Positions 21,430 to 59,077 of a stretch of DNA of 64,000 nt are shown one piece after another (the first letter of the stretch is position 1; every line of letters begins with the position of its first letter). Under the pieces are notes generated by a model. The model had not been told where the DNA came from. It was given only the letters and a program-made list of their open reading frames with translations, and ran no database searches. The DNA is from Escherichia coli. Its GTDB lineage: Bacteria > Pseudomonadota > Gammaproteobacteria > Enterobacterales > Enterobacteriaceae. The stretch lies in assembly GCF_965641715.1 (NCBI RefSeq), contig NZ_OZ282453.1. One strand, written 5' to 3'. Made by a program: the position numbers and the translations under genes.

Positions 21430-21527
21430 TACGTATCCTTATACCTGAAATCTTCGCAAGTATGCCTGGCCGCGAGATTATGGCACACTTGTCCGGTTAA
21501 CTCTCGTCTCATACAGGTAACACAAAC

Positions 21528-21572
21528 GTGAAAATCCTTGTTGATGAAAAAAATGATGACTTAATTTATTGA
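21528..21572 (+). pseudogene. pdxB: Orphaned native 5' end of pdxB (GTG + 7 native codons, then phage sequence, stop after 14 codons)
   Basis: GTG AAA ATC CTT GTT GAT GAA = MKILVDE, the PdxB N-terminus. It continues into prophage DNA (KNDDLIY*). Confidence 0.75.
21531..21550. repeat. Prophage attachment-site core, ogr/cargo-proximal copy
   Basis: AAAATCCTTGTTGATGAAAA is identical to 57944-57963, and the two copies bracket every phage gene. Confidence 0.8.
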
Positions 21573-21625
21573 TGTAAAAGGATTTATGTCAGCGCGTGTC
21601 CACGCAGTGACCACATTTTCGAGTT

Positions 21626-21669
21626 ACAGATAACACAAAGCCCGTTTTCACGGGCTTTGTGTTATCTGT
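21626..21669. terminator. 19-bp perfect hairpin (bidirectional terminator/insulator)
   Basis: ACAGATAACACAAAGCCCG-TTTTCA-CGGGCTTTGTGTTATCTGT. It lies just downstream of the 297-aa gene (minus strand) and of the pdxB stub (plus strand). Confidence 0.7.
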
Positions 21670-21696
21670 AATTGTGGCTAAGCCACATGATTTATA

Positions 21697-22590
21697 CTAT
21701 TTCCAGTTACAAGCAGATTGAAGCGGTTTTAGCGCGTTTGACAGGCCGTTTAAATTGAAAGTTGCACTTACGGGGCTCTCATTATAAGGCGTTATTTTTG
21801 TATACATTTTGCTTGAGTTGGCTAGTTTTCGGATGAAATCAATGTCATTACCTTTATAAAAAACAGCCTTTGTATCTGTAGATACTAGCCAGTTTCGCTC
21901 AACTGCTTTCTGTTTATCAAGGCGATAAAGCATGCTGGTTTGTTCAAGGCCTAAATATACATCCCAACTAAGAAATACTTCGGTTTTCTTTTCTCGGCAA
22001 GCTATAAACAGAGTAGGAGTAACCGCTTCTCCAAATGGAGTTCTGATATAATCATCACTTTCTAACGATAAAATTACATTTTTCGAATCATCAATTGGCG
22101 ATGTAGTAATGGATGTGTGCCATTTTCCTACATCTGTGGCTTTCTCTAATTTTGATTCAGCTTGAACGGCTTTATCCTGTGGGAATAGTTTATCGTAGCA
22201 GTTTAGTCTGGCTTCTTTATCATTTTCTGCACGACATTTAGATATCTCAGAAAGATTTGGTTGCTGAGCCTCTGTTGTTACTGGCTTTTCCGTTTTAGAT
22301 TTTGAGTTTACAGATGGAATAAATGTTGGAGAAAAGAAACGATCATAACAAGATAAACGTCTATCATCATCTTTCTCATCAGGGCATTGATCTCTGCTTT
22401 CGAATTTTTCAGCAACTTTCGTTCGAGTCGGTTGTATTGACTTATCGTAACAAGAAAGTCTGTCTTTATTATTTTCTATTGCTCGGCACTGGAGTACTGC
22501 ATTGAAGTTCTTATGTTCAGTTGCTGCGTGAACAGGCAGTACACTAATTGATAAAAATGATGCGCCTATAGAAAAAATTATATTTTTCAT
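21697..22590 (-). CDS. Secreted protein with three N-terminal C-x11-C / RLxCYD modules and a VasI/TagO-like C-terminal domain (function unknown)
   Basis: 297-aa ORF with signal peptide MKNIIFSIGASFLSISVLPVHA. The repeats are CRAIENNKDRLSCYDK, CPDEKDDDRRLSCYDR and CRAENDKEARLNCYDK. It sits in an AT-rich prophage-end moron. Confidence 0.7.
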   Translation of the reverse strand: MKNIIFSIGASFLSISVLPVHAATEHKNFNAVLQCRAIENNKDRLSCYDKSIQPTRTKVAEKFESRDQCPDEKDDDRRLSCYDRFFSPTFIPSVNSKSKTEKPVTTEAQQPNLSEISKCRAENDKEARLNCYDKLFPQDKAVQAESKLEKATDVGKWHTSITTSPIDDSKNVILSLESDDYIRTPFGEAVTPTLFIACREKKTEVFLSWDVYLGLEQTSMLYRLDKQKAVERNWLVSTDTKAVFYKGNDIDFIRKLANSSKMYTKITPYNESPVSATFNLNGLSNALKPLQSACNWK

Positions 22591-22594
22591 TTTA

Positions 22595-22927
22595 TTATCC
22601 CTTTGGTTTAGTAAGAAATACTAAAATTCCGATAATGATATCGCCAATAACCCATAAGCTTCCAATGGTAATTAAACCTAAGCCTGTACCAATAACTGCA
22701 CCGGCTTTTTCAGCATCGGATGTGGCATTATTTATTATTTCACTAGTGCCACCTAGTCCAACTAAAAGCGTATAGATCATAAAAATATTAAATAATATAA
22801 AAACCCACTTAATGATCCGTCCAAAAAATGAACGCTTAAGTTTTTGTAGTTGTTTACCACAAGCAGGGCAATACAATGCTGAATCGCTCACCTCTTTCTG
22901 GCATTCAGGACATTTGATTAATGCCAT
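22595..22927 (-). CDS. Zinc-ribbon membrane protein (function unknown)
   Basis: 110-aa ORF with CPEC-x10-CPAC at the N-terminus and two hydrophobic helices. AGGAGG lies 8 nt before the ATG, and the stop is 4 nt from the next gene. Confidence 0.7.
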   Translation of the reverse strand: MALIKCPECQKEVSDSALYCPACGKQLQKLKRSFFGRIIKWVFILFNIFMIYTLLVGLGGTSEIINNATSDAEKAGAVIGTGLGLITIGSLWVIGDIIIGILVFLTKPKG

Positions 22928-23158
22928 GTAATCCGCCTCCTTTGGATTAATACGAGTTGATGTTTGTTACAAAACATTTTGATTTTATCAGATTTTTTTT
23001 TATTGATAAGTGTCAATTGATTAGCTGGTATAGAGTGAGGCATATAGAAGGGCTGATCTGTATCAGTATGTGATGCAAAAATCCCACAGTTTCATGGAAT
23101 TTTTGCAGTTAGAGCTGTGAGATAGGGTGCCTTATCGACCTTACCCTGGCAACCGATT

Positions 23159-23189: not shown

Positions 23190-23330
23190 TTACTGCTTAC
23201 ACTGTAAGAACGCCGCAAACTCCGCTCCCCAGAAGCTCATCCGTATTTCGCACAGCGAACCGTGAAGCATCCAGATGATGAGGATTGCCGTCACGCAGAA
23301 CGTGATGGCCGTAAGCGATTTTTGCGACAT
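23190..23330 (-). CDS. Hok/Gef-family type I toxin (46 aa; too short for the supplied ORF track)
   Basis: MSQKSLTAITFCVTAILIIWMLHGSLCEIRMSFWGAEFAAFLQCKQ has an N-terminal TM helix, an LCEIR core and a G.E(F/V)AAF tail, as in Hok/Gef/RelF. AAGGAG lies 8 nt upstream, and the leader 23331-23520 is long and structured. Confidence 0.7.
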   Translation of the reverse strand: MSQKSLTAITFCVTAILIIWMLHGSLCEIRMSFWGAEFAAFLQCKQ

Positions 23331-23520
23331 AGCGCTTGCTCCTTTTTCGGGGAGGCGCTAACCTATCACTTGCTTAGGGTAGACGGTTAGGGCCTCGGTT
23401 AAACAAAAGTGTTTTCCGGGGCCTTTCCACATCTGGCCTTCGGGTATTCCCTCCGACCATCAGCCGAAAGGCACCCGCGCGTAATCTATCGCTTTTTTGT
23501 TACTCCGACAATTCTGCCTG

Positions 23521-23781
23521 TTAATTCTGAGGTAAAGGCAAACTCATCTGATTGTTTCCCCTGTGTGAAGCTGGCAGCTCATGCCACGGGATACCTTCTG
23601 ATGAGTGAACGCCGGAGGCGTGTTTCGATGTGAATTTATGGAAAGCTTCCAGTGTTGAGAAGCATACGCCGCATTCCAGATTGTTACACTGGTAATACTT
23701 TTGCCGCACGGTGTTTGAATCATTTTCCGGACGACTGGTGCGGATACGGGCAGATGCGCCACAAAGCGGACAACGGAACAT
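23521..23781 (-). CDS. ogr: Ogr/Delta-family zinc-finger late-gene activator
   Basis: MFRCPLCGASARIRTSR...YYQCNNLECGVCF parallels P2 Ogr (MFHCPLC...HQCQNVNC). AAGGGAGG acts as the SD. Confidence 0.88.
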   Translation of the reverse strand: MFRCPLCGASARIRTSRPENDSNTVRQKYYQCNNLECGVCFSTLEAFHKFTSKHASGVHSSEGIPWHELPASHRGNNQMSLPLPQN

Positions 23782-45571: not shown

Positions 45572-46617
45572 TGAGCAGAAAAAATAAAAAAGTGCGCATG
45601 AGTTCACGCATTGATCTCGCTGATGCGCTCAGGAAAGAATCGTCGCTCAGTGCATTCACATTTGATGGTCCTTACCGCCTGACCGGGCATGACCTGCTGG
45701 ACAATATGTACTGTGCTGATAACGGGCGGTGGTATGAAACCCCGGTGGACTGGTACGGTCTGGCAAGAGCCGCCCGGCAAACGTCCTGGCATCAGTCTGC
45801 GCTTTACTTTAAGCGCAATGTATTGCTCGGTTGCTACATCCCGCACCCGCTGCTTTCCCGGCAGGATTTCTCGGCGCTGGCGCTGGACTGGTTTGTGTTC
45901 GGTAACGCATTCCTTGAGCTTCGGAGCAATATGCTCGGCGAACCACTTAAATTACGGCACGCACTGGCGAAATACATGCGACGCGGAAGCGATCTTGAAT
46001 CATGGTGGTATGTGCAGGATGGCAAGGACGCGTTTCAGTTTCGCCCTGGCAAAGTGTGCCACCTGATGAATCCGGACATTAACCAGGAAATTTACGGCAT
46101 GCCGGAATATCTTGGCGCATTACTCTCGGCCAGCCTGTCTCATTCGGCGGACATGTTCAGAAAACTGTACTACGACAATGGATCCCACGCCGGGTGCATC
46201 ATCTACATCGGTGCAGCGCAGGTAAACCGCGAAAGCATGGACTCCCTGAAGGAAACGCTACAGGGTGCGCGTGGTGGTGGTGCATTTAAAAACGTGCTCA
46301 TTCACGCGCCCAACGGGGGCAAAGAAGGTGTGCAAATTTTGCCGTTCCAGCAGATCACCGCAAAGGATGAGTTCATGAATGTTAAGGCGGCATCCCGTGA
46401 TGATGTGCTGGCTGCGCACCGCGTTCCGCCGCAACTGATGGGGGCGATGCCGGGCGAAAAAAGTGCGTTTGGTGATGTGGAGAAGGCAGCGCGGGTTTAC
46501 GCAATTAACGAGCTGATGCCCGTCATGGAGGCCATGAAGCATATCAATGACTGGCTTGGCGAAGAGGTGATCCGCTTTAACCCTTACGCACTGCTGGACA
46601 CCCAGCCCACATCCTGA
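45571..46617 (+). CDS. Portal protein gpQ-like
   Basis: 348-aa ORF with an ATGA overlap with P. P2 order is P then Q, next to cos. Confidence 0.9.
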   Translation: MSRKNKKVRMSSRIDLADALRKESSLSAFTFDGPYRLTGHDLLDNMYCADNGRWYETPVDWYGLARAARQTSWHQSALYFKRNVLLGCYIPHPLLSRQDFSALALDWFVFGNAFLELRSNMLGEPLKLRHALAKYMRRGSDLESWWYVQDGKDAFQFRPGKVCHLMNPDINQEIYGMPEYLGALLSASLSHSADMFRKLYYDNGSHAGCIIYIGAAQVNRESMDSLKETLQGARGGGAFKNVLIHAPNGGKEGVQILPFQQITAKDEFMNVKAASRDDVLAAHRVPPQLMGAMPGEKSAFGDVEKAARVYAINELMPVMEAMKHINDWLGEEVIRFNPYALLDTQPTS

Positions 46618-46644
46618 CGCGCTTCGCTTGTCTGCTGCTTCGCC

Positions 46645-46667
46645 GGGGCATAAAAAATTTATGCCCC
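46645..46667 (+). terminator. Hairpin after portal gene
   Basis: GGGGCATAAA-AAA-TTTATGCCCC. Confidence 0.6.
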
Positions 46668-46926
46668 GACTCTCCAGCTCCTGTATCAATCAGATAATTT
46701 CACGACGTCTTCCAGCTTATCGCCATCATCGACGGTCAGGCTCTTACGCAATCCCACCGCGTTGACTGCATGTTCTTGCCGCCTCAGTGCGATTTTGACG
46801 GCCTTATCTGTCACCCCATCAAATCAAAAGCCCTCACGCCTTTTTCACGCTCAGTGTGAGAAATACAGCCATTCTGTTGTGTCGCTGCGACATCGTTCAG
46901 GGAATGCTATTTACCCCCTGAAACGC

Positions 46927-46945
46927 GGGCTGTTCCCCCGTCACC
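46927..46945. other. Candidate cos cohesive-end sequence (low confidence)
   Basis: The reverse complement GGTGACGGGGGAACAGCCC matches the remembered P2 cos overhang GGCGAGGCGGGGAAAGCAC at 13 of 19 positions. The location next to Q is as expected. Confidence 0.3.
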
Positions 46946-47041
46946 TGCGCGCAGAAAAAACGCGTTTTTTTGTGCACGCACGGATCCTTGACGGATCCAG
47001 TCGCCACGCGGGCCGGAAGGGTAAAAAGTTGTTCAAAAAAA

Positions 47042-47079
47042 TTGTGCAAATTTGTGCACTATTGTGCGGTGTATAAAAT
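47042..47079 (+). promoter_or_regulatory. Three phased TTGTGC(A/G) repeats plus TATAAAAT, a candidate phd-doc promoter/operator
   Basis: TTGTGCA at 47042, TTGTGCA at 47052 and TTGTGCG at 47062 have an exact 10-bp period. TATAAA is at 47072-47077, about 65-80 bp upstream of the phd start. Confidence 0.45.
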
Positions 47080-47141
47080 GAAAATATGGCGGTGTTATTA
47101 CTGCCCAACAAGCCGTTATACTTACGTTATGGGCGTGCATA

Positions 47142-47498
47142 ATGGAAATGAATATGAAAACTGTAACTGATGATGAATTTCGTGAGAACCTGAGTGAAAT
47201 TCTGGATTACCTTTCTTCCGGTGGCAGTGTCGTTATCACGGCGCAGGGAGGGAAGGATGTTGTTCTTGCTGGTTCTGATCTTAGTCCTGAAATACGGGCT
47301 GTCCTTGGCAAAACCAAAAAACTGCGGGATCAAATAAACAAAATGAAGCAACCACTCTTAATAAATGCAGTGAGAGATCTGGAAAAACGTCATCCAGCTC
47401 TTGTCGCACAGAGAAAAAAAGGATTGTCTTTTGAAGATGCAATGAAGCGTACAAGAGAAAAACATGCGGATATCATTAAAAAGCTTGAGGATAACTGA
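47142..47498 (+). CDS. phd: Phd/YefM-family antitoxin with extended C-terminal region (start may be the ATG at 47154)
   Basis: MKTVTDDEFRENLSEILDYLSSGGSVVITAQGGKDVVL is a Phd/YefM-type N-domain. The stop overlaps the doc start (TGATG). Confidence 0.8.
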   Translation: MEMNMKTVTDDEFRENLSEILDYLSSGGSVVITAQGGKDVVLAGSDLSPEIRAVLGKTKKLRDQINKMKQPLLINAVRDLEKRHPALVAQRKKGLSFEDAMKRTREKHADIIKKLEDN

Positions 47499-47905
47499 TG
47501 GACATAGTGTTTTTGTCAAAAGAACAAGTAGAACGTATCCATGCTGAAACTTTACCCCAGAGCGGAAATGCCAATGACGGGCTACTTGAAGGTGCTTTAA
47601 ATCGCGTCAGGACACTACACTACTATGAAGGGGTTGATGATATTCATGCTCTGGCTGCTATGTATTTGATTGGTATAGCCAAGGCTCATGCCTTTCATGA
47701 TGGGAATAAACGCACAGCTTTTCAGGCTGCATCAATATTTTTAATGATGAACTCTTCCGAACTTTCAAACTCCCTGCTGCTGGTTAAATTAACGGTGTTT
47801 TCAGCAATGGGGATAGCTACCCTTGAGGAAGTTACCTTTGCTTTGAAATTGCTGTCTGATTATGGCAATGAATTAATCAGCGACTACGAAGAAGATTATA
47901 TTTAA
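47498..47905 (+). CDS. doc: Doc (death-on-curing) Fic-fold kinase toxin
   Basis: 135-aa ORF. HAFHDGNKRTA matches the Doc motif H-x-F-x-D-x-N-K-R-T. Confidence 0.88.
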   Translation: MDIVFLSKEQVERIHAETLPQSGNANDGLLEGALNRVRTLHYYEGVDDIHALAAMYLIGIAKAHAFHDGNKRTAFQAASIFLMMNSSELSNSLLLVKLTVFSAMGIATLEEVTFALKLLSDYGNELISDYEEDYI

Positions 47906-48071
47906 TGCTGGCATACTCTGTCGTGTTAAGACAACAGCCTTTGCGGAGACAGGGCAGGGTGCCAGACTTGCCCGCAGCGCGTCTGACATGAGCAGTTATT
48001 CATCTTTTTTATTGTTTTTCTCCATGCAGGGCGACAGTGCGCCCCGATAAAATTAAAAGCCGTCAAATTCG

Positions 48072-48407
48072 TCATTCATGCGTTTTTTCTTCATGGTCTG
48101 TCACTTCTCTCCTGATAACTTCATTGCACAAATCAACGCACTCATTGCAGATGTAAACAGACGGTCCGGCAATCACCTTTGTGACTTCGTACTGGGATTT
48201 ATTGCAGAAGCTGCAATAAATCGTCTCCTCACCTGAAGTCCATGTTTTGCTGGTTTCGCCAGACATCAGTTGTTTGAGGTCTTTTTCACGACGAAGAACT
48301 ATCTGGCCACATTCAGCTATTTTTTGGATGTTGACATTTTCTTCTTTCGCCAGCGCTTCCATCCGCTCAATCAGTCGCTGCGCTTTTTCTCTGTCAATGC
48401 GTTGCAT
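48072..48407 (-). CDS. Stand-alone ClpX N-terminal zinc-binding-domain (ZBD) protein with a coiled-coil N-terminus and no AAA+ module
   Basis: 111-aa [42 protein letters not shown] compares with E. coli Clp[46 protein letters not shown] acts as the SD. Confidence 0.85.
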
Positions 48408-48470
48408 TGTGTCCCCCTTGTTTATGTTCCCGGGTTAAAGTCATCAGGGCGGATGCGCCCTGATGTTGTG

Positions 48471-48782
48471 TTATTCGGGAAATAACGCCCGGATATTTCC
48501 GGCCATCTGACTGGTTATCTGTGCGGTTGATACTGGCTGTGACGCGGGGCGTTCTGTCCTGGTTTGTGTCACTGATAACGCTTCATCATCAGCCCATGCA
48601 GCCAGTCGGTAAGCCTCTGCCGGATTCATTTTCAGAAGTGCCAGCCCGGCCAGAAAAGCCACGCGTTGGCCGCTTTTGCGCGCTTCTGGTGTAAGGCTGT
48701 CCAGCCAGGCGCATGCTTCACCTTCGTTCTTGACGGCGGCGGGCTTCAGATAGAAACTTATCCGTCTGGTTGGAGTCGTCAT
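48471..48782 (-). CDS. parR: ParR-like centromere-binding adaptor (RHH)
   Basis: Start MTTPTRRISFYLKP...LDSLTPEARKSGQRVAFLAGLALL parallels R1 ParR (RRTIAFKLNP...LDSIPQGERSRLNRAALTAGLALY). AAGGAG overlaps the parM stop. Confidence 0.8.
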   Translation of the reverse strand: MTTPTRRISFYLKPAAVKNEGEACAWLDSLTPEARKSGQRVAFLAGLALLKMNPAEAYRLAAWADDEALSVTQTRTERPASQPVSTAQITSQMAGNIRALFPE

Positions 48783-48786
48783 TGGT

Positions 48787-49746
48787 TTACTCCTTGTCCA
48801 TTGCGTACAGCCCATTAACCAGAGCAAACTGTGGCACCCCGTCCGCGATGAAAGTCGCATTAACTCCGCAGGCTTCGCGGATAGCGGGTGCCACAATCTC
48901 CGCCCCGCCACCGACAACCATCACCCGCCCGTAACCCGAAAAAACCGCCAGCGCGCGGATCACGCGTTGTTTCAGTGTTTCTTCCTTTTCACGAATAACC
49001 GCCATCAGGCTGGCGTAATGCGCGTCATTGTGGATGTGCTGGCGCAACCAGGCTTCATCATGGCGATGTTCGATAATGGTATTGGCGATGTGGTGACTGA
49101 TACGCATACCGTTAGTGGCCATCACCGACAGTACGGCATCGGCCATCAGGGAAACGCCTACGTGTGGATCGCAAAACACCTGGCTGATACCTGCCAGTTG
49201 CCCCTGAACCTTTGCCACATCCAGTGTGGTTCCGCCCAAATCCACAATCAGCAGGGATTCAAGCGGACTCATGTCAGCCAGTGCTTTAAAGCCAGCCGGA
49301 ATGGATTCAGGCATAACCCGTACGTTACGGATAGTGAATGTTTCGCCGTTCTGGTACTCCACCGGGCGCATAACGTTCGCTTTTTTGCGGCTGATGTTGG
49401 CCATGTCCGGCTGTGCGTTTGTGTCGAAATACTCGCTCAATGGCAGGGTGACAACCACATCCACCTCCTGTGGCGTGATGCCTGATTTGACCAGCGCGTG
49501 ATGAATGGCAATGACATTCACATCGCTGTACTGGTATTGCGTGTCGGTCGTCTGGACAAAGCGATCGCTGACCGGATCAAAACCATAGCGCACGCCATCA
49601 AGCATGTAGTTCGCGGGCTGCGAGCCACCGAACGGCGCAGACCATTCCGACTTGAAGCTGTTCGGGCTGATGGCGTTGCGGCGTTCGCCGTTCTCAGTCC
49701 ATGCCAGCTTGATGTTGGTGGAGCCGTCGTCGATACAAATTTTCAT
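48787..49746 (-). CDS. parM: ParM/StbA actin-like segregation ATPase
   Basis: 319-aa ORF. MKICIDDGSTNIKLAW...ISPNSFK...YQYSDVNVIAIHHAL...VMPESIPAG...DLGGTTLD...GGGAE is collinear with R1 ParM. Confidence 0.9.
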   Translation of the reverse strand: MKICIDDGSTNIKLAWTENGERRNAISPNSFKSEWSAPFGGSQPANYMLDGVRYGFDPVSDRFVQTTDTQYQYSDVNVIAIHHALVKSGITPQEVDVVVTLPLSEYFDTNAQPDMANISRKKANVMRPVEYQNGETFTIRNVRVMPESIPAGFKALADMSPLESLLIVDLGGTTLDVAKVQGQLAGISQVFCDPHVGVSLMADAVLSVMATNGMRISHHIANTIIEHRHDEAWLRQHIHNDAHYASLMAVIREKEETLKQRVIRALAVFSGYGRVMVVGGGAEIVAPAIREACGVNATFIADGVPQFALVNGLYAMDKE

Positions 49747-49783
49747 GTCGCTTTTCCTTATGTTGATTAATTAATCGTTTACA

Positions 49784-49871
49784 GGATTTTTAAATCCCGC
49801 TTTTGCCTGTTTTGTGCGCGCTTCATATATCGCGGCACGTTTTTTGCTCATTTATGGGATTTGTGAATCCC
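49784..49871. promoter_or_regulatory. Two GGATT..AATCC palindromes upstream of parM (candidate parC/operator)
   Basis: GGATTT-TT-AAATCC at 49784-49797 and GGGATT-TGTG-AATCCC at 49856-49871. The second lies inside the 3' end of the gpA ORF. Confidence 0.3.
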
Positions 49872-56660: not shown

Positions 56661-56756
56661 GGCCAGAAAACTGGTTAGACCTGCTTTTTGTCTGGTCTGA
56701 TTATTGCTGGAAAGAGGCTGGAGAAATTGTAGAGCGGTTCATTGGAGGGCTTCGTA

Positions 56757-57761
56757 ATGTCGATTAAGAAGCTCGAAGATGGTCGTTATTTGCTGGACAT
56801 CAGGCCGAACGGACGCAAGGGAAAGCGCGTGCGTAAGGTATTTGACAAAAAATCGGTAGCGGTGGCCACTGAACGCTACATCATGGCGAACGCTGAAAAG
56901 CGGGAATATATACAGGGCTACCGTGATCGTCGAACGCTAAATGATTTGCTTGAGTTGTGGTGGATGTATCACGGCCAGCACAGGCGTAAGGCGGAAGAAG
57001 ACCGAAAACAACTGCGCAACATAATCAATGAGCTTGGCGCTGATATGCAGGCTGTGGATCTTGATAAGCTGAAAATTATCGCGTGGCGTTCTCAAAAGAT
57101 AGCTGAAGGATTGAAACCGTCATCTGCTAACAGGTACATGAATCGGTTATCCGGAATGTTTACCGTGCTGAAAAAAATAGGTCTTTGGGATGCAGAACAT
57201 CCAGTAAGGGGAATTTCTATTCTTTATGTATCTCCACGAGAAATGGCGTTCCTGTCACAGAAGGAAGTGGCGCTATTGCTCGATACACTGGAGGGCGACT
57301 ACTGGCGTGTTGCGCTTTTGTGTTTAAGCACAGGGGCGCGCTGGAGTGAAGCTTGTAAGCTTCGTGGTGAACAGATAGTTCATAACCGTGTAACGTTTCT
57401 TGAAACCAAAAATGGCCGGAAGAGAACAGTGCCAATTTCGCAGGCAGTTTGTGAGGCGATCAAAACCAGAGAAACAGGCGGCTTGTTTGAGGTGAAGTAC
57501 CGGGAATTCTGCCTGGCGCTGAAAAGAGTTAAGCCCGACTTACCAAAAGGCCAGGCTGCACATGTGCTGCGGCATACGTTCGCCAGCCATTTTGTGATGA
57601 ACGGAGGAAACATTATTGCGCTTCAGAAGATTCTTGGTCACGCAACCATTCAGCAAACAATGGCATATGCGCATTTTGCACCGGATTACCTGCAGGATGC
57701 GGTGGCCCTTAATCCGCTGAAAGGTGGCGTAAGTGTCCACGCAGTGTCCACGGGGGATTAA
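56757..57761 (+). CDS. int: Tyrosine integrase, P2 Int-like
   Basis: MSIKKLEDGRYLLDIRPNGRKGKRVRKVFDKKS... through ...HVLRHTFASHF...LGH...YAHFAPDYLQDAVALNPL is collinear with P2 Int. Confidence 0.93.
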   Translation: MSIKKLEDGRYLLDIRPNGRKGKRVRKVFDKKSVAVATERYIMANAEKREYIQGYRDRRTLNDLLELWWMYHGQHRRKAEEDRKQLRNIINELGADMQAVDLDKLKIIAWRSQKIAEGLKPSSANRYMNRLSGMFTVLKKIGLWDAEHPVRGISILYVSPREMAFLSQKEVALLLDTLEGDYWRVALLCLSTGARWSEACKLRGEQIVHNRVTFLETKNGRKRTVPISQAVCEAIKTRETGGLFEVKYREFCLALKRVKPDLPKGQAAHVLRHTFASHFVMNGGNIIALQKILGHATIQQTMAYAHFAPDYLQDAVALNPLKGGVSVHAVSTGD

Positions 57762-57919: not shown

Positions 57920-59077
57920 TTGTCAGAGACTGAAAAAGGGTTAAAAATCCTTGTTGATGAAAATATGCCTTATGCCCGCGACTTATTTAGCCGTTTGGGT
58001 GAGGTGACCGCGGTTCCCGGGCGTCCAATCCCCGTCGCTCAACTGGCAGACGCGGATGCGCTGATGGTGCGTTCGGTCACGAAAGTGAATGAATCTTTGC
58101 TGGCAGGAAAACCCATTAAATTTGTTGGCACTGCCACTGCGGGGACCGACCATGTCGATGAAGCATGGTTGAAGCAGGCGGGAATTGGTTTTTCCGCTGC
58201 ACCTGGCTGTAATGCGATTGCGGTGGTGGAATATGTTTTCTCCTCCCTGCTGATGCTTGCCGAACGCGATGGATTTTCACTGCACGAGCGTACCGTGGGG
58301 ATCGTGGGCGTTGGTAATGTTGGTCGGCGTTTACAGGCACGACTGGAAGCGTTAGGGATTAAAACCTTGCTTTGCGATCCGCCTCGCGCTGACCGTGGGG
58401 ATGAGGGTGATTTCCGCTCGCTGGATGAATTAGTTCAGCATGCGGATATTCTGACTTTCCATACGCCACTTTTCAAAGACGGGCCGTACAAAACGCTGCA
58501 TCTGGCGGATGAAAAACTGATCCGTAACCTGAAGCCAGGAGCGATTCTGATTAACGCCTGCCGTGGCGCAGTCGTCGATAATACCGCGCTGCTGACCTGC
58601 CTGAATGAAGGCCAGAAGTTAAGCGTAGTGCTGGATGTCTGGGAAGGCGAACCGGAACTTAACGTGGAGTTGCTGACAAAAGTGGATATCGGCACGCCGC
58701 ATATTGCAGGCTATACCCTGGAAGGTAAAGCACGCGGTACTACGCAAGTGTTTGAAGCCTATAGCAAGTTTATTGGGCATGAACAGCACGTTGCGCTGGA
58801 TACATTACTACCCGCGCCAGAGTTTGGTCGCATTACACTGCATGGCCCGCTCGATCAACCGACGCTGAAAAGGCTGGTGCATTTGGTGTATGATGTGCGC
58901 CGCGATGACGCACCGCTGCGTAAAGTCGCCGGGATACCGGGTGAGTTCGATAAACTGCGCAAAAACTATCTTGAGCGCCGTGAATGGTCATCTCTGTATG
59001 TAATTTGTGATGACGCCAGTGCGGCATCATTGCTGTGTAAACTGGGTTTTAACGCCGTTCATCATCCGGCACGTTAA
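57920..59077 (+). CDS. pdxB: Erythronate-4-phosphate dehydrogenase PdxB with phage-derived 5' end (TTG start; an alternative internal ATG is at 57965)
   Basis: From [21 protein letters not shown] onward the sequence is canonical PdxB. The upstream MSETEKGL plus AAGGAG (57907-57912) come from the prophage arm. Confidence 0.88.
57944..57963. repeat. Prophage attachment-site core, int-proximal copy (inside pdxB codons)
   Basis: AAAATCCTTGTTGATGAAAA is identical to 21531-21550. Confidence 0.8.

Follow-up and report, generated by a model that had tools for sequence, protein, structure and literature searches.

A zinc-ribbon/VasI-domain gene pair at the att end of P2-like prophages: mobile cargo and a candidate envelope module

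The window, a 64,000-nucleotide stretch of an Escherichia coli genome (contig NZ_OZ282453.1), contains a P2-like prophage that carries two minus-strand genes close to one of its ends. Gene 1 (22595..22927) encodes a protein of 110 amino acids and gene 2 (21697..22590) a protein of 297 amino acids, with a 4-nt gap between them. GC content is 0.34-0.39 over positions 21600-23000, compared with about 0.50-0.60 on either side, in prophage and host sequence. This AT-rich island lies between ogr (23521..23781) and the att core AAAATCCTTGTTGATGAAAA (21531..21550), an exact 20-bp direct repeat that marks the prophage end and has its second copy at 57944-57963. The att copies adjoin flk at one side of the prophage and the integrase at the other. 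A hok/sok-like locus that was absent from the first-pass annotation of this DNA is located at 23190-23476, between the gene pair and ogr.

Expression-type signals flank the pair. A Shine-Dalgarno sequence (AGGAGG; 22936..22941, minus strand) was read 8 nt 5′ of the gene 1 ATG. A candidate sigma-70 promoter (TTATCA-16 nt-TAAAAT with a TG extension; 22982..23009, minus strand), picked up by a consensus scan only, is positioned ~55 nt 5′ of gene 1 in a region where such sites are no commoner than chance. On the other side, a perfect 22-nt inverted repeat with a 4-nt loop (21624..21671), situated 26 nt 3′ of the gene 2 stop, probably serves as both the operon terminator and the prophage-end hairpin. 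An Rfam match to mir-5897 on this hairpin was judged spurious. In phages of this type the lysis genes (holin and GH108 endolysin) lie away from the gene pair.

The first-pass annotation had described two tightly linked minus-strand genes in an AT-rich island between the att core and ogr, preceded by a dedicated AGGAGG ribosome-binding site and forming an att-proximal, non-core cargo operon. The ORF coordinates, the GC profile, the att repeat and the position of ogr all agree with that description, as does the absence of the pair from close relatives such as P88. The gene pair combines a non-core site, an odd composition, expression-type signals and patchy presence, and is therefore classed here, on sequence grounds, as a moron. 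By the same kind of evidence it is a mobile, non-core operon that occupies the cargo site between ogr and att in P2-like prophages (Peduoviridae, Xuanwuvirus-type).

The gene 1 product begins with two cysteine pairs (C6-P-E-C9, ten intervening residues, C20-P-A-C23) that matched Pfam Zn_Ribbon_1 (PF13240) over residues 5-27 with a score of 31.8 bits (cut-off 25). The zinc-ribbon codons (residues 4-27, CPEC-x10-CPAC; 22847..22918, minus strand) were delimited by the Pfam match and the homologue alignment. The same profile was matched by 26 of 27 gene 1 homologues, in which three of the cysteines (C6, C20 and C23) never vary and the fourth, C9, is kept in 90% or more; 22 positions in all are invariant across the 27. 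Hydrophobic helices were located at about residues 36-60 and 78-105. Gene 1 thus encodes what is predicted to be an inner-membrane protein, with a cytoplasmic zinc ribbon followed by a two-helix membrane hairpin. Both genes appear to be real, since dN/dS is low (0.17-0.53 for gene 1 and 0.12-0.39 for gene 2, relative to homologues ~80-95% identical in protein) and both belong to large conserved families. PHROGs placed the two proteins only in families of unknown function (phrog_6586 for gene 1 and phrog_1848 for gene 2).

Gene 2 was annotated by PGAP as a TagO-like T6SS-associated protein, and the first-pass annotation had named the VasI/TagO family on the strength of the N-terminal cysteine motif, an assignment that Pfam bears out. 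Pfam VasI (PF11319) matched with 89.7 bits against a cut-off of 26.5. The match fell on three stretches, in keeping with three copies of the N-terminal motif, and the best of these (residues 118-296) covered profile positions 1-184 of 184. The NCBIfam VasI equivalog TIGR03360 scored 75.3 bits, below its cut-off of 124.2. Residues 1-22 have the features of a signal peptide (22525..22590, minus strand), with cleavage predicted after VHA (VHA/A). Three tandem modules follow, all encoded on the minus strand. Module 1, CRAIENNKDRLSCYD (residues 35-49; 22444..22488), lies in a helical hairpin spanning residues 29-51 of the AF2 model (pLDDT ~85), and module 2, CPDEKDDDRRLSCYD (residues 69-83; 22342..22386), overlaps a helix at residues 75-85 (pLDDT ~77); both were delimited by motif and model. 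Module 3, CRAENDKEARLNCYD (residues 119-133; 22192..22236), was delimited by invariant residues and by a hairpin at 113-135 of the model. It is common to all family members, with C119, R128, L129, C131 and D133 invariant in 45 sequences, and it is this third copy that aligns with the lone copy of one-module members.

The C-terminal region of gene 2 (residues 150-297; 21700..22143, minus strand) was modeled as a beta-sandwich of VasI/IalB fold, beta-rich and with pLDDT >90. Within it C198, C294 and the two aspartates of SPxDDS (D167 and D168) are invariant, and P165 is at least 90% conserved. The signal peptide, the three modules, which were recovered exactly as first listed, and the beta-rich C-terminal domain had all been proposed in the first reading. 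There are four cysteine pairs, one of which (C198/C294) lies within the beta-sandwich, and the hairpins (C-x11-C with RLxCYD) are probably stapled by disulfides. The gene 2 product is thus a Sec-exported periplasmic protein in prediction, with three helical hairpins on flexible linkers followed by the beta-sandwich. By fold, its nearest structural matches are IalB and a flagellar-motor component of Vibrio that resides in the periplasm; Pfam IalB (PF06776) scored 20.4 bits, below its cut-off of 22.1, and identity to IalB is only 16%. The same fold is present in uncharacterised proteins of T4-like phages. A profile search of PDB sequences returned Tim21 and coronavirus ORF1ab at E ~0.2, which is chance level, and both were discarded.

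The membrane part of gene 1 (residues 28-110; 22598..22846, minus strand) was delimited by profile comparisons and extends from a juxtamembrane K-x-x-R-S-x-x-G-K motif to a C-terminal T-K-P-K motif. Profile methods, together with composition controls, point to a remote relationship between this hairpin and DrpB. NCBIfam DrpB (NF038392) aligned over profile positions 2-84 of 86 with 20.8 bits (E 3.6e-4), below the cut-off of 50, and precomputed Pfam DrpB (PF28000) matches, marked weak, were present on several gene 1 homologues. In hhalign, gene 1 residues 29-110 aligned with residues 11-93 of E. coli DrpB at E 1.2e-3 with a probability of only 19%, and T106 of gene 1 was paired with T89 of DrpB. 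Pairwise BLASTP of the 110-residue protein against E. coli DrpB was not significant (E 1.1). A profile of the two-TM domain alone retrieved 828 cluster representatives, and the 150 best matches included 145 new proteins. When these were searched with E. coli DrpB using phmmer, the top score was 24.6 bits and 53 of the 145 scored 10 bits or more. Reversed DrpB reached 6.0 bits, with no sequence at that level, and 40 block-shuffled versions reached at most 17.5 bits, with at most 10 sequences at that level. DrpB is found at the septal ring (PMC11709261; PMC7648144). In multicopy it activates Rcs via the periplasmic domain of RcsC, an effect that is abolished by T89A and has been reported solely on overexpression (PMC11709261).

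Natural fusions join the two parts of the pair. Nine of the 145 new proteins clearly end in a VasI domain, placed behind a third TM helix, and one more protein gives a weak match. A zinc ribbon, a TM helix and a VasI domain are found in one Spectribacter protein, and a Desulfobulbaceae protein has the order TM-TM-zinc ribbon-TM-VasI. One protein of a P2-like prophage combines zinc ribbon, TM helix, one module and VasI domain in a single chain. Since other bacteria have the VasI domain in one chain with the hairpin or with the zinc ribbon, we consider the two genes to be one functional unit. Their adjacency and the single-chain fusions show two proteins that would act jointly, as a membrane-anchored periplasmic device. 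The first-pass description of gene 1 stands for the zinc ribbon and the two TM helices, on which Pfam and hydrophobicity agree, and missed both the DrpB-like nature of the membrane part and the fusions. Since the two-TM family and its VasI fusions extend to Desulfobulbaceae and Spectribacter, which lack Rcs, an Rcs-specific mechanism would not be family-wide.

A count over 5,426 complete E. coli genomes gave 239 with the pair. Many P2-like prophages of Klebsiella, Enterobacter, Dickeya and Citrobacter have it as well, and its place is the ogr-to-att end in every case. Carriers include 500465-2, PhiR44_2, ΦSM and P88_4B11; phage P88 itself and other closely related viable phages are missing the pair. 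The order gpD-ogr-(hok)-zn-VasI-host recurs in Klebsiella, Enterobacter, Dickeya, Raoultella, Brenneria and Salmonella, at no fewer than five integration sites. One-, two- and three-module versions occupy the same prophage locus, and the three-module form is the commonest in the Escherichia and Klebsiella P2-like prophages of this sample. A phage-borne, triplicated copy had at first been thought unusual, a view that these counts overturn. The first-pass annotation had also left it to be checked whether the two genes are inherited as a unit and in which mobile elements. The family was located at P2-like prophage ends, in morons, in Vibrio integron cassettes and in small islands, and a VasI-like gene lies immediately 3′ of the repressor gene, or next to it, in unrelated temperate phages (Brucella BiPBO1, Klebsiella ST11-VIM1phi8.1 and Labrenzia vB_LagS-V1). 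Of 47 assessable IMG/VR loci found by the zinc-ribbon protein alone, 46 had a VasI-like gene directly 3′ of the one for the zinc ribbon; 39 of these copies were intact and 7 carried a frameshift.

The two genes need not go together, since the zinc-ribbon gene is kept on its own in Pantoea and Haemophilus and the VasI gene is frameshifted in ~15% of loci. Some N-terminal extensions resemble leftovers of a deleted zinc-ribbon gene. The two-module variant of E. coli has as its neighbor a gene for a zinc-ribbon, two-TM protein of the TM2 family. The hhalign similarity of this partner to gene 1 is limited to the zinc ribbon, and we regard the two as analogous.

Neighborhoods of the homologues were examined for T6SS genes. 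No recurring non-phage neighbors of T6SS type were seen in ~110 homologue loci, in which neighbors were Pfam-named for about a dozen proteins and which were found with patterns derived from the phage-like clade, so that T6SS-embedded VasI may lie outside this sample. The recurring neighbors were P2-like phage genes or, outside Enterobacterales, integrases only; there, no other neighbor family was common to more than three loci. In 45 species genomes searched for T6SS neighbors, clustered neighbors shared integrases only, and Pfam spot checks of neighbors identified Rhs, RecD/TerB, a Cas-associated protein, an aminotransferase and an integrase. In a genome 99.9% identical to the window over approximately positions 1,700-42,900, the annotations were of fimbrial, housekeeping and P2-like prophage genes, with no T6SS genes; the part of the prophage beyond that region carries replication and cargo genes. 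Membership of the pair in a type VI secretion system is not supported by this context, and the T6SS connection raised in the first reading is not borne out by the ~110 loci or by the TIGR03360 score (75 versus 124 bits). Among the loci sampled, the neighborhoods show the clade of the window protein to be mainly mobile cargo outside T6SS clusters. Taken together, the anatomy of the pair, its status as a unit and its non-T6SS context are very probably as described here. A PADLOC-DB 2.0 search for known and candidate defence systems returned nothing for either protein, even with E values up to 1 allowed.

The prophage protein could still dock on a host T6SS and raise killing, as VCA0118 does in V. 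cholerae, a lysogenic conversion towards aggression against competitors or host cells. This reading is encouraged by the genuine PF11319 domain with the N-terminal cysteine motif of its family. In V. cholerae, Hcp secretion proceeds without VasI, amoeba killing depends on it, bacterial killing does so in part, and killing is efficient only in its presence (PMC3166118); a 2026 review counts VasI/TagO among the T6SS accessory factors and gives its function as unknown (PMC13584744). Magaziner et al. in 2019 listed the pair as ΦSM cargo and as a T6SS virulence gene (PMC6456863), and in the literature searched for functional studies of TagO/VasI in P2-like phages this cargo-table entry is the only mention. 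The reading is weakened, and we consider it doubtful, in view of the score below the VasI equivalog cut-off and of ~110 loci without the large shared neighbor families expected of a T6SS cluster. Relatives are integron cassettes and repressor-linked siphovirus morons, and the conserved partner is DrpB-like, with no known T6SS role, and is fused to the VasI domain in other taxa.

A stand-alone periplasmic shield is given a similarly low standing. The VasI/IalB domain would neutralise an incoming tail lysozyme, T6SS peptidoglycan hydrolase or bacteriocin in the manner of an orphan immunity protein, a lysozyme inhibitor or T4 Spackle, with the membrane protein serving only to tether or stabilise it. 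A predicted exported protein with four cysteine pairs would suit such a role. The family also occurs as single-gene cargo next to TA modules in Vibrio superintegrons, a Photobacterium copy adjoins a gene for an LprI lysozyme inhibitor, the family occupies repressor-adjacent sites of the kind typical of exclusion genes, and the fold is shared with the uncharacterised T4-like phage proteins.

A role in the phage life cycle, in lysis timing, DNA passage through the envelope or prophage maintenance, is improbable. The genes share the orientation of the late-gene activator ogr and of hok/sok and lie just downstream of them, and the pairing of a membrane protein with a periplasmic one is reminiscent of spanins and lysis regulators. 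However, close viable phages including P88 do without the pair, which is AT-rich relative to the core and frameshifted in ~15% of loci; homologues are found as integron cassettes and stand-alone chromosomal genes, and the phage type has its holin and GH108 endolysin elsewhere. That the pair is a neutral, decaying remnant hitch-hiking at a recombination-prone prophage end, as frameshifted or single-gene copies and N-terminal extensions resembling remnants of a lost zinc-ribbon gene might suggest, is hard to reconcile with dN/dS of 0.12-0.53 across both genes, with many residues invariant down to 35-60% identity and with retention of the pair in prophages at many integration sites and in many genera, and we give it very little credence.

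Our best guess is that the lysogen expresses the pair as an envelope module serving exclusion or protection from envelope stress. We put the probability of the whole explanation, a paired membrane-periplasm envelope device expressed in the lysogen, at roughly 40%. The operon would be transcribed from its own promoter in the lysogen. Expression in the lysogen is favored by the AT-rich island, by the pair's own Shine-Dalgarno sequence and promoter-like site, and by the repressor-linked VasI genes of other phages; as a general statement, ~90% of the prophage coding regions of C. rodentium are transcribed (PMC6456863). The periplasmic VasI domain would read or bind an envelope component, and the DrpB-like hairpin would link it to inner-membrane envelope machinery. 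In enterobacteria that machinery could be the divisome or the Rcs relay through its RcsC arm, as with overproduced DrpB. The envelope of the lysogen might thereby become harder to breach for superinfecting phages, tailocins and T6SS attack. An envelope role is suggested by the IalB and flagellar-motor fold neighbors, by the killing role of VasI in V. cholerae, and by RgsG, an IalB-domain protein of Sinorhizobium that is essential, periplasmic and localized to the growth zone within the Tol-Pal network (PMC7327166). A protective envelope function is a tentative reading, in our view less likely than not.

A bolder version of this envelope reading, which we consider unlikely, is that the pair and its fusions are a mobile two-part envelope sensor whose VasI/IalB domain detects breach or remodelling of the wall or outer membrane. 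The signal would pass via the DrpB-type hairpin, with its zinc-ribbon cap, to RcsC in enterobacteria and to other partners elsewhere, and temperate phages and integrons would be spreading a non-immunity defence against phage tails, tailocins and T6SS. If true, this would explain both the role of VasI/TagO within T6SS clusters and the switching on of Rcs by overproduced DrpB.

Several known systems invite comparison with the pair. T4 Imm and Sp, a superinfection-exclusion pair of a membrane protein and a periplasm-facing protein, block the entry of a contractile-tail phage. Together with P2 old, tin and fun(Z), they are like the pair in being non-essential phage cargo; sequence or fold similarity between these proteins and the pair was not detected. 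The ogr-att site is not among the listed P2 defence hotspots (PMC9122126, PMC13586616). IalB (invasion-associated locus B of Bartonella; PDB 3DTD), one of the nearest structures to the modeled fold of gene 2, has no Cys-hairpin modules, unlike gene 2. VasI/TagO (PF11319, formerly DUF3121; VCA0118) resembles gene 2 in its signal peptide, its C-x11-C/RLxCYD motif, a C-terminal domain of ~150 residues, and a conserved Cys and Trp near the C-terminus. In contrast to VasI/TagO, gene 2 has three N-terminal modules in place of one, is prophage-encoded outside a T6SS cluster, falls under the TIGR03360 cut-off, and has a DrpB-like membrane protein as its partner, either encoded alongside it or fused to it. 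The PGAP TagO name and the 2019 ΦSM cargo listing (PMC6456863) were already known. Over 200 E. coli genomes carry the label "T6SS-associated protein TagO", and it ought not to be taken as evidence for T6SS function or virulence, and the pairing gives a lead that VasI-domain proteins may work with a small inner-membrane partner. DrpB (YedR) and gene 1 are alike in their topology (both termini inside, two TM helices joined by a periplasmic loop of ~20 residues) and in their motifs (R-S-x-x-G-K next to the membrane, conservation of the distal part of TM2, and T-[RK]-P-[KR] at the C-terminus). The threonine of this last motif is T89 in DrpB, the residue needed for Rcs activation. [quoted passage not shown] The likeness provides a second lead, that DrpB may belong to a far larger family whose members have periplasmic partners.

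The AT-rich end of the ~36-kb P2-like prophage in the window was found to carry a co-inherited operon, which encodes an inner-membrane protein with a cytoplasmic zinc ribbon and a DrpB-type hairpin and a periplasmic, multi-module protein of VasI/IalB fold. The pair is non-core cargo of temperate phages and other mobile elements. The att core is a 20-bp direct repeat, AAAATCCTTGTTGATGAAAA, at 21531-21550 and 57944-57963, with the host gene flk (NCBIfam, 506 bits) on one side and an integrase-sized ORF (56742-57761) on the other; a 99.9% identical E. coli genome is annotated fadJ-sixA-yfc fimbriae...fabB-yfcJ-flk, then prophage. The interval from the att core to ogr (23521..23781, Pfam Ogr_Delta) contains two minus-strand ORFs, of 110 aa (gene 1, 22595..22927) and 297 aa (gene 2, 21697..22590) and separated by a 4-nt gap, exactly where the first-pass annotation had placed them. 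The AT-rich island that it described is evident in a GC content of 0.34-0.39 over 21600-23000 vs roughly 0.50-0.60 around, and every motif that it quoted was found: CPEC-x10-CPAC in the 110-aa protein, a signal-peptide-like N-terminus (ending VHA|A) and three modules in the 297-aa protein, and an AGGAGG 8 nt upstream of the gene 1 ATG.

A minus-strand hok/sok-like type I toxin-antitoxin locus (23190-23476), absent from that annotation, lies between the pair and ogr. It comprises a hok-like 46-aa ORF (23190..23330; Pfam HOK_GEF, 29.9 bits vs a cut-off of 22) and an overlapping sok-like RNA match (23317-23476; RF01794) whose 45.7 bits fall below the gathering score of 59; the element is common to Stx phages at ~83% identity. 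Just 3' of the VasI-like stop codon and ~75 nt from the att core is a perfect 22-nt inverted repeat (21624-21671, 4 nt between arms), which may serve as a terminator, as integrase/IHF arm sites or as both; one arm recurs as a partial copy of 15 nt beyond the att core, towards the host (21512-21526). Elsewhere, the portal-to-gpA cargo hotspot (46600-49800) holds a Phd/Doc toxin-antitoxin pair (47142-47905, plus strand), a small protein with a ClpX-type C4 zinc finger (48072-48407, minus strand) and a ParM/StbA-type partition ATPase (48787-49746, minus strand), the last of which fits the published observation of a partition system in about a quarter of P2-like phages.

The VasI/TagO family named for gene 2 in that annotation was recovered by Pfam, where the 297-aa protein matches VasI (PF11319) in three stretches at 89.7 bits vs a cut-off of 26.5; it missed the NCBIfam VasI equivalog cut-off (75.3 vs 124.2 bits). 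Its modules are CRAIENNKDRLSCYD at residue 35, CPDEKDDDRRLSCYD at 69 and CRAENDKEARLNCYD at 119. In an AlphaFold2 model (45 homologues in the alignment, mean pLDDT 76), short helical hairpins at 29-51, 75-85 and 113-135 (pLDDT about 77-86) are joined by disordered linkers and followed by a confident beta-sandwich from ~150 to 297 (pLDDT above 90). Once mature, the protein contains eight cysteines, which group into four obvious pairs (C35/C47, C69/C81, C119/C131 and C198/C294), the last two of which are family-invariant, as are R128, L129, D133, W157, D167, D168, R223 and K228. The VasI/IalB-type fold was also seen in uncharacterised proteins (BFVD, Foldseek E 1e-7 to 2e-4) of Escherichia phage RB16, Klebsiella phage KP15, Aeromonas phage 65.2 and Vibrio phage VH7D; their names suggest virulent T4-like types, and the fold would therefore extend beyond temperate phages.

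The 110-aa protein begins with a four-cysteine zinc ribbon (residues 5-27; Pfam, 31.8 bits). The remainder is a two-helix hairpin, for which positive charges before TM1, a loop of ~20 residues and a short, basic C-terminus (T-K-P-K) predict that both termini face inwards (N-in/C-in), the zinc ribbon being cytoplasmic. Twenty-two positions are invariant among 27 sequences of the family. A hairpin-only profile matched 828 cluster representatives among 1.84 billion proteins (E up to 1e-3), many of them 85-100 aa long and without a zinc ribbon. Remote homology of the hairpin to E. coli DrpB (YedR) is, from these comparisons of sequence, likely but not established. The NCBIfam DrpB model aligned over positions 2-84 of 86 (E 3.6e-4), precomputed Pfam DrpB matches exist on several homologues, and hhalign paired residues 29-110 with DrpB 11-93 (E 1.2e-3, probability only 19%). 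With phmmer, DrpB scored up to 24.6 bits against the hairpin family and at least 10 bits in 53 of 145 members; reversed DrpB reached 6.0 bits and no member at 10, and 40 hydrophobicity-preserving block shuffles never exceeded 17.5 bits or 10 members. The protein missed the curated DrpB cut-offs, and pairwise BLASTP against E. coli DrpB was non-significant. Invariant T106 aligns with DrpB T89, the single position at which a mutation abolished the activation of Rcs by DrpB (PMC11709261).

Judged from adjacency and fusions, the two genes constitute one unit. A scan of IMG/VR with the 110-aa protein returned 50 loci with a full-length match, 47 with enough downstream sequence, and at 46 of these a VasI-like gene follows directly, with a few-base gap or small overlap. 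It is intact in 39 (23 three-module, one two-module and 15 one-module), frameshifted in seven (six apparently with one common lesion) and missing at the remaining locus, where host genes follow. Zinc ribbon, TM helix, one module and VasI domain are fused in a protein of a P2-like prophage (P0052), and a Spectribacter protein fuses zinc ribbon, TM helix and VasI domain behind an N-terminus (MALTKCRECS...CPQCG) strikingly similar to that of the window protein; a Desulfobulbaceae protein reads TM-TM-zinc ribbon-TM-VasI. Among the best 150 hairpin-profile matches, 145 were proteins new to the analysis, and nine of these combine a DrpB-like hairpin, a third TM helix, a linker and a C-terminal VasI domain, which with three helices would be periplasmic; a tenth matches the domain weakly. 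The E. coli two-module variant has an analogous partner, a convergent adjoining gene for a zinc ribbon plus two-TM protein of the TM2 family (PF05154). The partnership is non-obligatory: some VasI copies are partnerless, and in Pantoea and Haemophilus paracuniculus the zinc-ribbon/DrpB-like gene is a conserved chromosomal gene lacking its VasI partner. The Pantoea order, cueR-zn-copA, is a P2-like attachment region, one genome has a P2-like prophage immediately beside the gene, and these stand-alone genes may be domesticated prophage-end remnants.

The pair occurs in 239 of 5,426 complete E. coli genomes, and near-identical DNA was found in Escherichia phages 500465-2 and PhiR44_2, Citrobacter phage ΦSM and Xuanwuvirus P88_4B11, so that the triplicated, phage-borne version can no longer be called unusual, as it had been. 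PGAP names the two products "type VI secretion system-associated protein TagO" and "zinc ribbon domain-containing protein", and ΦSM ORF1 stands in a cargo table as "T6SS VasI family protein" (Magaziner et al. 2019, PMC6456863). Nine of 240 matches in the E. coli collection are plasmid-borne rather than chromosomal, perhaps within P2-like elements that have inserted into plasmids or persist as plasmids themselves. E. coli RM10740 carries the same prophage at flk, with a 99.9% identical pair, both genes intact, in a degraded element (gpD truncated, an IS66-family element in the tail-fibre region). Every close homologue with examined context lies at a P2-like prophage end, directly after gpD-ogr; integration sites are yccJ/wrbA and fieF/pfkA in Klebsiella (the latter also in Enterobacter), a copA-type site, pflB/focA in Dickeya, ytfP in E. 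coli and flk in the window. By length, the homologues form three classes, which carry three, two or one N-terminal modules; the N-terminus is thus, by sequence comparison, modular, with units gained and lost, and triplication is one of its states. Some three-module ORFs (homologues P0002, P0004 and P0008) have extra N-terminal residues, MALVSCKDEQ-, resembling the opening codons of a deleted zinc-ribbon gene fused to the VasI start, which suggests that gene 1 has repeatedly been lost by deletion.

We infer that the operon would be expressed in the lysogen, because it has its own Shine-Dalgarno site, a candidate extended -10 promoter (no better than chance) and repressor-adjacent relatives in other phages. 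By analogy, the pair would further act on the envelope, since the nearest available clues to function all lead to periplasmic machinery: for DrpB the sites of action are the divisome and RcsC, RgsG, a protein with an IalB domain, is indispensable at the growth zone linked to Tol-Pal (PMC7327166), a flagellar motor ring component is among the structural neighbours of the 297-aa protein, and VasI improves T6SS delivery with secretion unaffected. In our preferred reading, held tentatively at a probability of roughly 0.35, the periplasmic domain would sense or bind an envelope feature, the hairpin would couple this to inner-membrane envelope systems, and the lysogen would better withstand incoming injection devices. 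Since fusions of the family are also found in bacteria that lack Rcs, a mechanism specific to Rcs cannot be the general one.

That the pair instead boosts type VI secretion is doubtful. [quoted passage not shown] No type VI link was seen in the sampled clade, which is the phage-like clade and not all of PF11319, the scan patterns having been derived from it and the comparison set being free of T6SS-embedded VasI. Across 185,579 species genomes, 45 loci with VasI-like genes were recovered; those in Enterobacterales are again mostly P2-like prophage ends, and elsewhere the clustered neighbours are heterogeneous, with no family except integrases common to more than three loci. Spot-checked neighbours include Rhs, a RecD-type helicase with a TerB-N protein, a Cas-associated protein, an aminotransferase and an integrase; a Photobacterium copy adjoins an LprI-family gene and a P. 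damselae copy a YhaV/PrlF toxin-antitoxin pair. A 201-aa one-module protein of V. cholerae, still annotated TagO, is a gene cassette of the chromosomal integron, adjoining an integron-type integrase downstream of infC-rpmI-rplT among ParE/Phd, acetyltransferase and DUF3709 cassettes. In the unrelated temperate phages Brucella BiPBO1, Klebsiella ST11-VIM1phi8.1 and Labrenzia vB_LagS-V1, VasI-like genes lie directly downstream of or beside the repressor gene, and in Pasteurella Pmp14 and Escherichia IdasGreatGrand they are morons among tail or replication genes.

A stand-alone periplasmic inhibitor or immunity protein is equally doubtful. A role in the phage life cycle is less probable still. 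A neutral remnant, some copies being frameshifted, is very improbable, as dN/dS of 0.12-0.53 against five homologues places both genes under purifying selection. The rest of the probability belongs to something else.

Neither protein matches known defence systems, and the ogr-att site is not among the P2 defence hotspots listed in the literature. Both genes were already annotated, and VasI-like cargo had been noted in print. Compared with T6SS-associated TagO, the 297-aa protein shares the Pfam family but falls short of the equivalog threshold and differs in genomic context; compared with DrpB, the membrane part of the zinc-ribbon protein is probably a remote relative. New to our knowledge, within the literature searched, are the link between VasI domains and DrpB-type hairpins, seen both in adjacent genes and in fusions, the series of one, two and three modules, and a clade around the window protein that is predominantly mobile cargo outside T6SS clusters. 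As a common element, the pair provides a concrete way into two protein families that are poorly understood.
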